A stretch of DNA of 64,000 bases from Octopus vulgaris (GCA_951406725.2 OX597825.1:69006001-69070000), one strand, 5' to 3'. Positions 14,623 through 64,000 are shown, counted from the first letter of the stretch. Notes: generated from the sequence alone by a model not told the origin. Made by a program: numbers and translations.

Positions 14623-14710
14623 TAATTTTACCTATACGGTCACTTTTATGCGCTAGGCCACTGAGAAACTACACATTCTTTATTTTCTCTCCTTGTTTCG
14701 TTCTGTGTTC

Positions 14711-14746
14711 CTTTCTGTGGAAGAGCGTAGGCTCGAAACGTTAAAG
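14711..14746 (+). ncRNA. Minimal type I hammerhead-like motif (core CUGUGGA) in a solo PLE pLTR
   Basis: cttt-CTGTGGA-a-gagc(gtag)gctc-GAAAC-GTT-aaag. The flanks (14660-14830) resemble the 3' end of the pLTR at 45440-45636. Confidence 0.65.
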
Positions 14747-14848
14747 ACATTTTCACTTCCCGAGCGTTATACTAATACATCTGTTTGTTGTGTACACCAT
14801 CTGTCTTCGTCTTTTGTTCTTTTAGTGAATATATATATATGTATATGG

Positions 14849-35836: not shown

Positions 35837-35981
35837 TATATATATATATATATGTAAATAAATATATATATATATATAAAGTTAATCCAAACATGAAAAC
35901 ACAAAGAGAAAACACAACAACGCGAGGACGTGGAACAAATATAGTATTATTGGACGCTCAAGAAGGAAGGGAAGAAGGAGG

Positions 35982-36016
35982 GTTCAACGTTTCGAGCGGA
36001 GCTCTTCGTCAGAAAC
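35982..36016 (-). ncRNA. Canonical-core minimal hammerhead motif in a solo PLE pLTR (~35880-36090)
   Basis: Minus strand: gttt-CTGACGA-a-gagc(tcc)gctc-GAAAC-GTT-gaac. Confidence 0.8.
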
Positions 36017-37021
36017 ATAGGAAAAGGAAAGATCCAGAGAAGGGAAGACGGAGGAAAAAAAATCGCCAACGGTACACACGCGGTCGTATATGTTTGTGTA
36101 ATATTTGTATATATGTATATATACATATGTAAGATATATATGTACTATATATGCATATATGTATACATATGTATATGTGTGTGCCTCTTTATGTTTGTCT
36201 CCGGCCATCACTTCATAATCGGTTTTTGTTTATGTCCTCATAAATTAGCGTTTCGGGCATAACCGGACAGTAAAATAAATACCAGACTTTCTAATAAAAT
36301 AAGTACTTGGATCGATTTAAAAAAACAAACTAAACCCTTCGAGGCGATGCTTCAGCATGGCCACAATCGACGACCAACTTTTTGTTTTTGTTATATACCC
36401 AGGCCTATTCCCCATTTTTTTAAGGAGGGAATAGCTACAACAAGACACACACCATGCATTCTATTCATGTCCTAGCTCAATGAGGCGAGCCCCGTTCTAT
36501 GCTCAGTTCAAGGTATAGAACGCAACCCCCAATATTAGCAGCGGGGTCCGACAGCAAATGCTTGTTTACCCCTGCCGCATCATGCTGGTTCTGTGCAACA
36601 AGAAAAAGACAACTAAAACAAGAAAAAAAATAAAATATAAAAAAAAAGAGTATTTCTTAACATTTCACTGTTTATTTAAAAATGTCTACTCGATATAAAG
36701 ATTTATTATGATATTGGAACTATCAATGGGAAGCCCTTCAGTAAACCAACTTAAAATCAATTTACAATTATTGAATCCGTAAAAGCTGATTATTACATTT
36801 ATCGCTTAATCAATAGTTGTATCAATGATATCGTTTTCTCCACTTTATTTAGTATCGAAGTTTTCCTGTATTTCGATCTATTCGCATTGGTTGATATGTG
36901 TTTGTTTCTAAGTATGTAAATGTTTCTGTCTGCATAACCTCACACACAGACACAGACACACAAATACAGCGATACGAGATTATATATATATATATATATG
37001 TATGAAATGTTCCTGTGTGTT

Positions 37022-37200
<179 letters not shown>

Positions 37201-37323
37201 TTATTTATTTAGATATCTATGTATATGTGCATATGTACATACGTTCATCTACATATATATAAACAGGACAGGTGAGGTAAGAACAAGGTGTATTAGTTTG
37301 ACGCTAAGGAAAAATGGAAAACT

Positions 37324-37359
37324 ATTTGACGTTTCGAGCCTACGCTCTTACACAGAAAT
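37324..37359 (-). ncRNA. Degenerate hammerhead-like motif (core CUGUGUA) in a pLTR fragment within (TA)n
   Basis: Minus strand: attt-CTGTGTA-a-gagc(gtag)gctc-GAAAC-GTC-aaat. Confidence 0.55.
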
Positions 37360-44881: not shown

Positions 44882-45050
44882 TACAGACGGAGTAGGGGCT
44901 TACGAACCACATGGTTCCGGGTTCAGTCCCACTGCGTGGCACCTTGGGAAAGTGTCTTCTACTATAGTCTTGGGCCGACCAAAGCCTTGTGAGTGGATTT
45001 GGTAGGTGGAAACCCGTTGTATGTATGTATATATATATATATATATATAT

Positions 45051-45636
45051 ATACACCAACCCTATACATACACACGTCCAGACCCTGCATACGCACTTAT
45101 ACTCTCTCATACACACACACACACTTATACATACTAATACGTACTAATACATACTAATACATACTAATACATACACCAACCCCATACATACGCACGTCCA
45201 GACCAATCCTACGCACTAATACTCTCTCATACACACACACACACACACACACACCCTTATACATACTAATACATACACCAACCCTATACATACACACATC
45301 CAGACCCCTCCTACGCACTATTAGCTGGTCCCTCAACCCTATTATCAACCCTATTATCTCCCCTTATTTCGCTCTCGCGTCTCATGTTTGATCTTTGACC
45401 TCTGGCCGAAATCAGATCGCCATGTTGATTCGTTAGCTACTGCACGCATTTTTTTTCTCTCCTTCTTTCTGTGTTTTTTTTTCTCTCTGTGTATCTTTCT
45501 GTTGAAGAGCGTAGGCTCGAAACGTTAAAGACTTGTTTTATTTATATTTCCTGAGCGCCATACTAATACAATTGTTCGTTTGTTTTCCACCTGCCTTCGT
45601 CTTTTGTTTATTTTCATAAAGCTTCCCGTTATATAT
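45051..45636 (+). repeat. 5' pseudo-LTR (three ~110-125-bp CATA/CA-rich subrepeats plus unique tail with ribozyme motif)
   Basis: Matches 49539-50097 except for a few substitutions and repeat-length differences. Confidence 0.92.
45494..45531 (+). ncRNA. Minimal hammerhead-like motif (core CUGUUGA) in the 5' pLTR
   Basis: tcttt-CTGTTGA-a-gagc(gtag)gctc-GAAAC-GTT-aaaga. The palindromic AACGTT replaces stem III. Confidence 0.7.
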
Positions 45637-46251
45637 TATGCGCTCACGTGGTCTCACTTTCATCCTATATTCTACCAATACCACTATCAACACTTACCTC
45701 TACCTTGGATTTTCTTTACCTCTTGGATACTTACCATTGGCTGCACCTCTCTTTCGCGGATCAAAGTGACTTTGCATTGATGTGAAATCCTTAAAAATAT
45801 ACCACGACGTCTACACATTTCTCACCTTGAACTTTCAACCTTGAACTTGTTCGCATAAACTGTCCCGTTTGTTGTATTTTTATTTTCTCTTATATTACCA
45901 CTTTTTTTACATTCATTTCATGCTTTCCACATTTTCCTGCATATTTGTTCTCCTTTCCGTCTTTCTTCCCTCTCTGGATGTCCATACTCCGTTTCCTCTG
46001 CCTGCACACCCCTTTTTTTGCCTCCCCCTCTCTCTGCTTCCCTTCTTTCTTTCCCTTTTCCGTTTGCCCCGTCTTTTCTGCCCCTATCGCTTACTTATCT
46101 AGTTTTTTCATACGATTATTATTTTTTTGTTTTTTTGAACGTTTGTTTTTTCCCTTTTTTCGCTATCCTTTTTTTCTATTTTTTTCATACGATAATTTTT
46201 GTTTTTTGTTTTTTTTTGTTTTTTCGAACGTTTTTTTCCCGCTATCCCATC

Positions 46252-49158
46252 ATGCCGGATCCTAGGTCCTACCTCCTCACCCTCCATCACCGTTTGAAGG
46301 ATCATCTCCGTTCACTTCCTGTATATTGCCTTCAGCCGTCCGTTAATCTCTCTCTACTTCTTTTTTAAAAAAACCCGCTTCTCTAGCCATGTCTCTTTCC
46401 TAAGCCGCTGCCTACATCACCGACTCATCCCTAAAGGTTTCCGCCTCCACTTCCACCCTGCTCTCCACTCGGATTCTTCCATCTTACCCATACTCCGCAC
46501 CACATCTTACCGCCTTATGCGGGCCACCATTCGCTCCAATCTCTCCAAACTACATGCCATCAACCGCCTTCTTCCTCCTGCTTTCTCCACCTTCTTCTCC
46601 TCTCTGCCGCCTCTCTATGCTCCAAACACGCTACGCTTCATTATCCATTTGAATCAACTCTTCCATCAATTTCTTTCTGATACCAAACTTCGTAAACTCC
46701 AATCACTCTTCCATTCCACCCTACCCGACGCCACTACCCCAACTCCTCCACCACCCTTCTCCCCTCCCGATAGGCTCCATCCACCCACACCTAACCCCAC
46801 TGCCCCTCCCTACAACCCCTTCTCCCCTCCCGTTAGGCTCCATCCACCTACACCTAACCCTACTGCCCCGCCCAACCACCCCCCACACACCTCCCCAATC
46901 CCTCCCCCTCAGACCTCCACGAGACCTACCACCCCTCCTACTTCTATTCCACCCACCCCTCCTCCACTTCCGTCTGTTGTTACCATTCCCCCCGATCTTC
47001 CCCTCTCTGCGGCTGAACGCTCCGTCCTTGGTAGGGGTCTGCGTTTCATCCCCCTCACTCCATCCTGTAAGGAATTCCAGACGCGAGTTGATGTCCACAG
47101 CTTTGTGCGCCGTGTCCGGTTGGGTGCGCATTACCACGACGCGCCACCCACACCCAACGAAGAGGACTGCTTCACTGGCCTGGGCCGCCGACCATCCCCG
47201 TGGACGCCTGCCCCTGGCCAGATCCTTGCAGTGGATCTTTTCGCGGGCGCTTGTCAGCGTGCATTGGAGCGGTTCAACTTCTCCAGGCGCCAACGCCGCC
47301 TCAACATCTCCCCGGCTGAGCTCTTGGCTCTTCGTTCCCTCCAACGGCGCGCTGACATTATCATCAAACCGGCTGACAAGGGTGGAGCTGTAGTGGTGTG
47401 GCGCGCGGACCTCTATAGGGCCGAGGCTTTCCGCCAACTCAATGACACCTCCTTCTATTCCCCTCTGCCCTCTAACCCCACACGTAGCTACCAACAGACG
47501 GTATCCTCTACTGTCCAAGACCTCATCTCGTCCTCCCGTCTCCCCCGCACCGCATCCAACCTAATTGTGCGAACCCCACGTACCCCCACCATTTACTTCC
47601 TCCCCAAAATCCACAAACCCAACAACCCTGGCCGCCCCATCGTCTCCGCCTGTAACTGCCCCACGGAGCTCATCTCTAAATACCTCGACCGTGTCCTTGC
47701 CCCCCTAGTGGCATCTCTTCCCTCCCACATCCACGATACCAACCATGCTCTCCGGCTTTTCTACTCTTTCTCCTTTCCTCCCGGCTCCTCCAAAATCCTT
47801 TTTACTATGGACATCCAAAGCCTCTATACTGTTATCCCTCACCACGAAGGACTGAAGGCCCTTCGACACTTTCTTGACCTTCGCTCTAACCCTGTACCTG
47901 ACACCTCCACACTCATTAGTCTGGCCGAACTTGTCCTTACTCTGAACTGCTTCTCGTTCGCGGGCGAGTTCTACCATCAGGTCTCGGGAGTGGCCATGGG
48001 AACGCGAATGGGCCCCAACTATGCGAACCTGTTCGTTGGCTATGTTGAGGCCCAAATATTCTCTAATTTCACTGGTCCCACTCCCGAACTATATGGTCGT
48101 TACATTGACGACATTATCGGTGCCACCTCACTCTCCCGCGAACATCTAGATTCCTTCCTCTCTTTCGTCCAATCTTTCCATCCAGCCCTCCACTTCACTT
48201 CCACTATCTCCAACACCTCTGTCTCCTTCCTCGACATTTCGGTTAGCATTCTTCACTCCACTCTTACCACCTCCATTCACTACAAACACACAGACTCACA
48301 CTCATACCTCAACTTCTCTTCCTCCCACCCAGAACACACCAAGCTTTCCATCCCTTATTCCCAATTCCTCCGTCTACGTAGGCTCTGTAGTGACGACCAT
48401 GACTTTGAGACTCAGTCTCAACGTATGGCTCACCACTTCACCCTACGTGGATACCCCTCACCACTATCCACACCGCCCTTGCCAGAGCACGGTCCGTGGA
48501 CCGTGTATCTGCTCTCTTTCCCCGAACCCGCCCTGTAGTCTCCCGCCTCCCTTTTCCCCTCACTTACCACCCCACGACCCTACCTCTCCAACGCACCATT
48601 CTTCGAGCTTTCCGTCATCTCCAGTCCGACCCGTCCACTTCACACCTCTTCCCTAACCGACCCCTCCCCTCTTTCAAACGAGCCCACAACCTTCGAGACC
48701 TTTTGGTCCATAGCTCCTTCCCTGACCCTACCTCCCAACCCGGCTCGTTCCCCTGCTCCCGCCCACGTTGCCGCACTTGCCCTTACCTCTCCAACACCAC
48801 CCGCCTCACTAGCACCCACCATCGACCCTATCCCATCATCCACTCCTTCACCTGCACCTCCAGCAATATTATCTATTGCATCTCTTGCTCTCTCTGCAAT
48901 TCCTTGTACATCGGACAAACGGGACGCCGCTTGGCTGACCGGTTCGCGGAACACCTTCGTGACATCCACCTTGCGAACGACACACCGGTCTCACGCCATT
49001 TCCGCTCCACCGGTCACTCCTTGCAACACCTATCTGTGTTCGGTTTGTCCTTACACAGAGGCCATCCGGATTCCCGTTTGCGCCGTGAACAGGAATTAAT
49101 CTTCTCTCTTCGCTCTTATACGCCATTTGGTCTCAACTCTCCCCCCCTCCTCATCTAA
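46252..49158 (+). CDS. Penelope-like reverse transcriptase / GIY-YIG endonuclease polyprotein (~968 aa if two 1-bp homopolymer frameshifts are repaired)
   Basis: N-terminal FLSRCLHHRLIPKGF. RT motifs IIIKPADKGGAVVVW, YFLPKIHKPNNPGRPIVS, MDIQSLYT, GVAMGTRMGPNYANLF, RYIDD and FLD. Linker PCSRPRCRTC, then NIIYCISCSLCNSLYIGQTGRRLADRFAEH...GLN. Frameshifts fall at T6/A7 46361-46373 and C4 48454-48457. Confidence 0.93.
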
Positions 49159-49159
49159 C

Positions 49160-49430
49160 CCCCCTCTCCCCCCCGACCCCTACTTCTTCAGTCCTTCATC
49201 CTTTCACCCCTACTCCCCTTCCCTTCTTCCCTCTTTCTCCCTCCCTCTTCCCCTTCCCTCTGCTCCCTCACTCCCTCTCTCCCCTTCTCTCTCCCCCTCT
49301 CCCTCTTTCCTCCTTCATCCCCCCTCCTCCCCTTCCTTCTCCCCCATCCTCTCCTCTTCCCCCCTCTCCACCCCCTCTTCTTCCCCTCCCTTCTCTCCCC
49401 CTCTTCTCCCCCTCCCCCTCTTCTCCTCAC
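49160..49430 (+). repeat. Polypyrimidine (C/T) tract in the PLE 3' UTR
   Basis: About 270 bp almost free of purines. The minus strand is a dense series of G-runs. Confidence 0.85.
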
Positions 49431-49538
49431 TACACCACATGACTTTACACATCATATCACATATGATGTGCCATACTAATACATACACCAACTAATACAT
49501 ACTAATACGTACTAATACATACTAGTACATACTAATAC

Positions 49539-50090
49539 ATACACCAACCCTATACATACACACGTCCAGACCCCGCATACGCACTTATACTCTCTCATAC
49601 ACACACACACACACACTTATACATACTAATACGTACACCAACCCCATACATACGCACGTCCAGACCAATCCTACGCACTAATACTCTCTCATACACACAC
49701 ACACACACACACACACCCTTATACATACTAATACATACACCAACCCTATACATACACACATCCAGACCCCTCCTACGCACTATTAGCTGGTCCCTCAACC
49801 CTATTATCAACCCTATTATCTCCCCTTATTTCGCTCTCGCGTCTCATGTTTGATCTTTGACCTCTGGCCGAAATCAGATCGCCATGTTGATTCGTTAGCT
49901 ACTGCACGCATTTTTTTTCTCTCCTTCTTTCTGTGTTTTTTTTTCTCTCTGTGTATCTTTCTGTTGAAGAGCGTAGGCTCGAAACGTTAAAGACTTGTTT
50001 TATTTATATTTCCTGAGCGCCATACTAATACAATTGTTCGTTCGTTTTCCACCTGCCTTCGTCTTTTGTTTATTTTCATAAAGCTTCCCG

Positions 50091-50097
<7 letters not shown>
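49539..50097 (+). repeat. 3' pseudo-LTR
   Basis: Direct repeat of 45051-45636, ending in (TA)n. Confidence 0.92.
49956..49993 (+). ncRNA. Minimal hammerhead-like motif (core CUGUUGA) in the 3' pLTR
   Basis: Identical to 45494-45531. Confidence 0.7.
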
Positions 50098-50144
<47 letters not shown>

Positions 50145-63393: not shown

Positions 63394-63928
63394 CGTCTGT
63401 CTGTCTATATATCTACCTACCTGCCTGCCTGTCTGCCTGTCCGTCCGTCCGTCCGCCAGTCTGTCTGTCTTCCTGATGGTCGCCTCATCTTTGCAGATGA
63501 TAGCCGTCTCACATTCAACTTGATTGTTCTGATTTGCTGTCATCCTTGTATGTGCACGGATATGACGTTTTACGCCATAGATAGATCACCATGGGATTCC
63601 ATAGAAATCAAATAGTAGAGAGAGACATCCGTACAGCATCGGATTTAAGTGACAAAGGTTTGTACAACACTTTTACTACTCTCTCGGATGCCTTAGCAGC
63701 TTCTAGTGACAAGCAGTGCAAGATATCTAGTATTATTTTGACTGCAAGTAAGGCGGCGAGCTGGCAGAATCGTTAGCACGCCGGATGAAAAGTTTAGTAG
63801 TATTTCGTCCGTCTTTACGTTCTAAGTTCAATTTCTGCCGAGTCGACTTTACCTTTCATCTTACCGCAGTAAATAAAATAAGTACCAGTGAAACACTGGG
63901 GTCGATGTAATCGACGCCTACCCACCAC

Positions 63929-63953
63929 TTCGAGCAAAGCTCTTCTTCAGAAA
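63929..63953 (-). ncRNA. Truncated hammerhead motif at the window end
   Basis: Minus strand ttt-CTGAAGA-a-gagc(ttt)gctc-GAA, cut off at the junction with a SINE. Confidence 0.5.
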
Positions 63954-64000
63954 TAAGAAACAGAGGAAAGTCCAACAGAAAAGGAAAACGGAGGAAAAAA

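Follow-up and report, generated by a model that had tools for sequence, protein, structure and literature searches.

A stretch of 64,000 nucleotides from the Octopus vulgaris genome (GCA_951406725.2 OX597825.1:69006001-69070000; hereafter the window) contains a Penelope-like element (PLE) whose two pseudo-long terminal repeats (pLTRs) each carry a hammerhead ribozyme motif with U in place of the core base A6. Comparison of sequences across the genome indicates that this U6 motif is a real variant of the PLE hammerhead class, present in very high copy number and held under long-term constraint, and a slowed ribozyme activity is proposed for it. Penelope hammerheads cut poorly in vitro, and in one reconstituted system cutting is dispensable for insertion. 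Here a natural lineage has altered a supposedly invariant core base while the rest of the motif is under strong constraint and A6 sisters are present in the same genome. U6 against A6, dimer against monomer, and presence against absence of protein thus make a ready comparison for separating catalysis from a scaffold function.

Both pLTRs contain the sequence tcttt-CTGTTGA-A-GAGC(GTAG)GCTC-GAAACGTT-aaaga, a minimal type I hammerhead with the core CUGUUGA, and the motif lies where the first-pass annotation of the window had placed it (C3 at 45499 and at 49961). Hammerhead 1 occupies 45494-45533 of the plus strand, with the 5' strand of stem I at 45494-98, U6 at 45502, N7 at 45503, the inserted A at 45506, stem II with its GUAG loop at 45507-18, G12 at 45519, the palindrome ACGU at 45522-25, U17 at 45526, the 3' strand of stem I at 45527-31 and U1.7 at 45533. 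Hammerhead 2 (49956-49995, plus strand) is of the same sequence, with U6 at 49964 and U17 at 49988. Cleavage is predicted after 45526 and after 49988. The numbering follows in part the general hammerhead convention, beyond what the papers cited in this text state.

The topology is that of type I, with stems I and II, a base inserted after A9, the pair G10.1-C11.1 and palindromic positions 15.2-16.2. In its position in both pLTRs, its short stem I, the extra base between 9 and 10.1, G10.1-C11.1, the 4-bp stem II with a 4-nt loop and the palindromic ACGU where stem III would be, the motif resembles the minimal type I hammerheads described from metazoan PLEs (PMC4209133). The nearest published motif is that of Neptune from Acropora digitifera, CUGACGAA GGGC UAAC GCUC GAAAC GUC (PMC4209133). 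The departure is at position 6. All of the 56 published PLE representatives have A6, which the descriptor required, whereas U6 is the consensus here in about 19,000 copies; the only core change named for PLE hammerheads in the cited part of that report is U3-A8 (PMC4209133). Since U6 departs from the published consensus CUGANGA, and does so in 75 of 77 copies collected without reference to the motif, we file the motif as a variant and not as a consensus member.

The reading of A6U as a family-level trait, and not as decay of single copies, had been put forward in the first-pass annotation, and a genome-wide tabulation of position 6 with a relaxed descriptor bears it out, giving U and not A as the family consensus. 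An exact pattern with positions 6 and 7 left open had 19,868 matches in the 2.8 Gb genome scanned and 0 matches for the reversed control, so the motif is not due to chance. Position 6 was U in 18,928 of these copies (~95%), A in 356 and, by subtraction, C or G in 584. With stem II left free, canonical A6 motifs sharing this geometry numbered 1,269 genome-wide (control 63) against the 18,928 U6 copies with one stem II, a ratio that is uncorrected for age because exact patterns undercount old families; consensus descriptors can in this way overlook the hammerhead family that dominates a genome. A pattern with the core left open retrieved 15,700 copies, and among the first 100 listed, judged by eye, position 6 was other than U three times and the other core positions were changed 0-4 times each. 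One unrelated repeat that matched the relaxed U6 pattern forms just a simple hairpin (AACCACG-AAA-CGTGGTT), has G in position 17 and was ruled out as a hammerhead.

Circularity was checked with an anchor lying ~60 nt downstream of the motif, for which the first 100 of 21,541 matches were taken. The full motif was present in 77 of them; the tally excluded 20 copies that were 5'-truncated and 3 in which the motif had indels or was locally damaged. U6 was found in 75 of the 77, and the other core positions were intact in 73-77: G12 in 73, A13 and A14 in 77 each, A15.1 and U16.1 in 76 each, and H17 other than G in 76, so that both GAAA and the UH cleavage triplet are present in this sample. N7 was U in 31, A in 23, C in 16 and G in 7 copies, and H17 was A in 60, U in 15, and C and G in one each.

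Four relatives of the motif, all noticed in the first-pass annotation, lie elsewhere in the window. Two of them carry U6 as described, namely a solo 3' end from an older U6 subfamily (14693-14818, plus strand; CUGUGGA, C3 at 14715) and a solo copy belonging to one of the most ancient U6 subfamilies (37281-37358, minus strand; CUGUGUA with a GUC triplet, C3 at 37355), the latter being decayed, with the change G8U. A solo copy of the A6 sister family (35900-36060, minus strand; CUGACGA, C3 at 36012) is canonical, again as described. The fourth (63900-64000, minus strand; C3 at 63950) had also been called canonical and does have A6, but it is a truncated fragment of the A6 sister family that stops after GCTCGAAG without the GAAAC-GUH half, and the 3' half of its core is gone.

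Nine subfamilies, assigned by hand, together with a homologous A6 sister family, form a ladder along which the median divergence of copies from their consensus falls from 0.23 to 0.01. The oldest subfamilies combine U6 with a GUC triplet (in 86 of 100 copies judged by eye, the first listed among 290). Old U6 copies share no more than 65-68% identity with the window element in the pieces of their endonuclease, so the time span of the U6 lineage is long. The element in the window is young, as first proposed, and its pLTRs are nearly identical (4 of 488 ungapped positions differ, both ends lying within (TA)n). U6, however, long predates the young subfamily; as it is already present in the oldest subfamilies sampled, its reading as a trait of a recently mobile element is not supported.

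The flank of the ladder has 101 changes in 106 columns, a rate that possible misalignment of its pyrimidine-rich columns would inflate. With N7 and H17 set aside, 34 motif positions remain, in which 32.4 changes are expected at this rate, as are 10.5 in the 11 core positions; none is seen in either set (P about 3e-5 for the core). The positions that vary are N7 (5 changes) and H17 (3 changes), all among C, A and U, and these are the two core positions that hammerheads leave free. No subfamily consensus has G at H17, and neither G8 nor G12 varies. In line with the first-pass annotation, the stems and the remainder of the core are conserved far beyond the flanks, and the pattern of fixed and varying positions supports selection on the motif while it carried U6. 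Selection on U6 itself does not follow (P about 0.39).

Conservation of the block could have a reason other than a ribozyme, such as a promoter, a splice signal or an endonuclease target in the pLTR. A long pyrimidine tract precedes the motif, and promoters and sometimes introns are known in PLE pLTRs. However, the free and fixed positions obey hammerhead rules, and the A6 sister family differs from the U6 family by one compensatory pair in stem I (GUUU/AAAC versus CUUU/AAAG). No intron joint was found over 45290-46560 in assembled contigs of four runs, which have four organism labels, none of them on record as RNA, and which cannot show RNA ends; an overlapping splice site is therefore without support. 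We regard a non-ribozyme signal as very improbable.

From the sister family and the 56 published representatives, all of which have A6, A is judged to be the ancestral state at position 6. The old subfamily S1 is mixed at this position (per 100 copies, U77/C14/A8/G1), and both minority bases exceed background decay, A6 with 8 of 100 against 2.7% (P 0.006) and C6 with 14 of 100 against 5.8% (P 0.002). An A6 sub-lineage inside S1 was rejected, as 7 A6 copies were scattered on the tree and formed no clade. The 14 C6 copies of S1 cluster weakly (6 of 500 shuffles), and their excess hints at a short-lived C6 source element, reminiscent of the A6C hammerhead of phage Bcep176. That natural hammerhead likewise has a pyrimidine at core position 6 (PMC3088659; PMC7151607), but it is a single phage case, with C and not U and, in the cited parts of these reports, without evidence of long-term retention or mass amplification. 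In subfamily S4 the consensus reads N at position 6 because A6-selected copies were added; all four of the unbiased S4 copies have U6.

As to what the motif does, we lean, with modest confidence, towards a hammerhead that would still fold and cut slowly, a second copy or the element protein being needed. Two motifs would pair through the ACGU palindrome and so form stem III, and U6 would weaken the uridine turn and lower the rate. Slow cutting would be tolerated and possibly favoured, because reverse transcriptase (RT) would start ~110 nt past the cut and only uncut RNA would yield motif-bearing copies. What cutting is left would be of use at some later or infrequent stage, for example in the trimming of tandem transcripts. 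More speculatively, the fixed GUAG loop and U1.7 may provide a compensating tertiary contact.

Some precedents are available for such behaviour. Natural A6C hammerheads are slow in Mg2+ and good in Mn2+ (PMC3088659; PMC7151607). PAc, a Poseidon PLE of the green anole lizard, has a hammerhead that requires the element protein in order to cleave; its RT initiates downstream of the cut site, and the element inserts in vitro without any need for cleavage (PMC11167929). As in PAc, the pLTR hammerhead of the octopus element lies upstream of the RT starts; the distance to these is 85-92 nt in PAc, and that to the element end is ~110 nt here. No RNA ends were found at the PAc cut site (PMC11167929), and no excess of insertion ends in the U6 family. 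PAc differs in belonging to the Penelope/Poseidon clade, with no core departure reported in the part of the study cited, and in that its motif overlaps the start of the open reading frame (ORF), which begins here ~725 nt downstream of the cut site (PMC11167929).

It is possible, although we think it unlikely, that A6U is an evolved throttle, in which the ribozyme has been detuned and the template stays uncut until protein or a partner copy triggers cleavage. Just as doubtful is the extension that the core was kept in this way through at least nine amplification waves, the lineage thereby outgrowing its canonical sisters about 15-fold. If a throttle were the case, stable inheritance of a non-consensus hammerhead core across a whole genome would have been shown for the first time, and surveys based on CUGANGA would undercount animal ribozymes by whole families.

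Several results weigh against slow cutting by a constrained U6 hammerhead. In pairwise mutagenesis of a type III hammerhead, all mutants of the CUGA turn had low activity except for the C3-G8 swap and were not rescued (PMC9901934). The invariance of loop II exceeds catalytic need and could point to protein binding. Insertion ends are not enriched at the predicted cut site, where in the youngest subfamily 3 copies begin against 3,091 that run through, and in the anchor sample 1 of the 20 truncated copies begins. Stem covariation inside the U6 clade, to which the first-pass annotation had looked, was sought at stem II pair 2, and no compensatory subfamily was found among 36 double-change copies. 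The unchanged state of position 6, taken alone, is compatible with chance. Finally, most consensus inputs were found through motif patterns, and the anchor sample covers the subfamily S0 with 1 copy and S0b with 0, while A6 is present in 2 of its 4 S1 copies. As to the insertion ends, copies of this family end ~110 nt downstream of the cut site; motif-bearing copies would consequently have to come from RNA uncut there, and the lack of a pile-up is expected with or without cutting.

The low activity of CUGA-turn mutants (PMC9901934) and the lack of a pile-up at the cut site would also suit the main alternative, a hammerhead fold that has lost catalysis but is retained by the element protein as a signal for binding, dimerisation or RT positioning, N7 and H17 being left uncontacted. 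The invariance of the whole 34-nt block, GUAG loop II included, points the same way, as do the in vitro insertion of a PLE without cleavage (PMC11167929) and the success of Naiad PLEs without canonical hammerheads (PMC8557442). However, the 2 variable positions among 36 are those that catalysis by a hammerhead does not constrain, which a random pick would give 1 time in 630; G8 and G12 do not vary, and H17 is never G in a consensus. In the lizard PLE, moreover, the minimal active template lies within the first 172 nt of the ORF, the 5' core of the motif being unneeded (PMC11167929). We treat a dead fold as a tentative alternative that is probably not correct.

The opposite possibility is that U6 is fully compensated, for instance by a contact between the GUAG loop and U1.7, so that activity equals that of the A6 sisters and the change was a neutral one in a founder. 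GUAG loop II and U1.7 are invariant within the U6 clade whereas loop II is variable among A6 families, minimal hammerheads gain activity from a contact between loop II and U1.7 (PMC11875169), and U6 retention taken by itself falls short of significance (P 0.39). However, the published contact is made by the fourth loop base, the A of GUGA (PMC11875169), and A is third in the octopus loop; A6C costs Mg2+ activity in two other hammerheads (PMC7151607); and among double mutants none restored the CUGA turn (PMC9901934). Full compensation seems improbable to us.

A 'self-lock' helix, in which U4-G5-U6 pairs with A15.1-C-G and the monomer is closed through U6-A15.1, was considered as well. Folding predictions gave it a pair probability of 0.81-0.98 in S1, S2, S5, S6 and S7, with a weak or absent helix in S3, S4, S0 and S0b, and the predicted dimer penalty switches sign between subfamilies. 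As the closure is predicted in five subfamilies and not in the oldest, it was rejected as a general explanation.

The claim that standard hammerhead descriptors would miss the motif holds for CUGANGA, which misses it by construction. Rfam reported no hammerhead among the 150 matches listed of 297 in the window, and none for the U6 motif alone or for the canonical A6 sister alone. Because Rfam misses both alike, its miss is not caused by U6. A natural hammerhead with A6U was not found in the literature searched, mostly through listings of hits, a search that did not cover Lünse et al. 2017; two of the papers listed are, by their titles, about other RNAs. The work of Lünse et al., reportedly an extensive survey of variant hammerheads from Penelope elements, may include families with U6.

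Among 120 metagenome matches to the U6 pattern, 19 have stems I and II. Ten of these resemble the Acropora Neptune hammerhead, and at least 4 of these lie beside A6 copies and for that reason look like sporadic decay. Several of the contigs with Acropora-type U6 motifs are fold-back or tandem structures in which the neighbour copy has A6. Unrelated minimal hammerhead-like U6 motifs with stems I and II intact occur in further metagenome contigs. A variant table of contigs omits the known N7 polymorphism, and for that reason nothing was concluded from its having no entry for position 6.

The element that carries the motif has direct-repeat pLTRs on both sides of its ORF, as seen by alignment and blastn. 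On the plus strand, the upstream pLTR (45047-45636), delimited by blastn against the element 3' end and by alignment, is the 3' end of a 5'-truncated tandem copy and starts from a (TA)n tract. It is followed by a 5' leader (45637-46251) and by the ORF (46252-49158, ATG at 46252), which comprises an N-terminal region, the RT, a CX4CxxC linker and, at the C-terminus, an endonuclease of the GIY-YIG type. The downstream pLTR (49535-50098) ends the element ~110 nt beyond the predicted cut site, in (TA)n. The RT matches PF00078 with an E value of 1e-7, and the endonuclease match to PF01541 (E 4.7e-4, 20.8 bits) is just below the cut-off of 22.6. The best protein homologues are 44-66% identical and contain both RT and GIY-YIG, with sharks, corals, echinoderms and snails among the names. 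In the window copy the ORF is interrupted twice, by a +1 frameshift at 46361 that 6 of 7 other copies lack and by a -1 frameshift at about 48454 that is lacking in 4 of 4. The linker between RT and endonuclease reads CSRPRCRTC and has the CX2-5CxxC form that is a feature of PLEs of Neptune or Nematis type (PMC8557442). Judged by its linker, the window element fits one of these two types.

The 3' untranslated region and the start of the pLTR (45047-45330 and 49450-49790) consist of imperfect tandem units, each ~100 nt long, in which (CA)n and ACTAATACAT repeats occur in numbers that differ among copies. On the 3' side of the cut site (45548-45610), the short blocks GAGCG, CTAATAC and CACCTGYCTTCGTCTTTTG are kept along all of the subfamilies, GAGCG and CTAATAC being conserved in the A6 sister family too. 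These blocks are candidates for an RT-binding or initiation signal, and the GAGC block could also compete for stem II's 3' strand.

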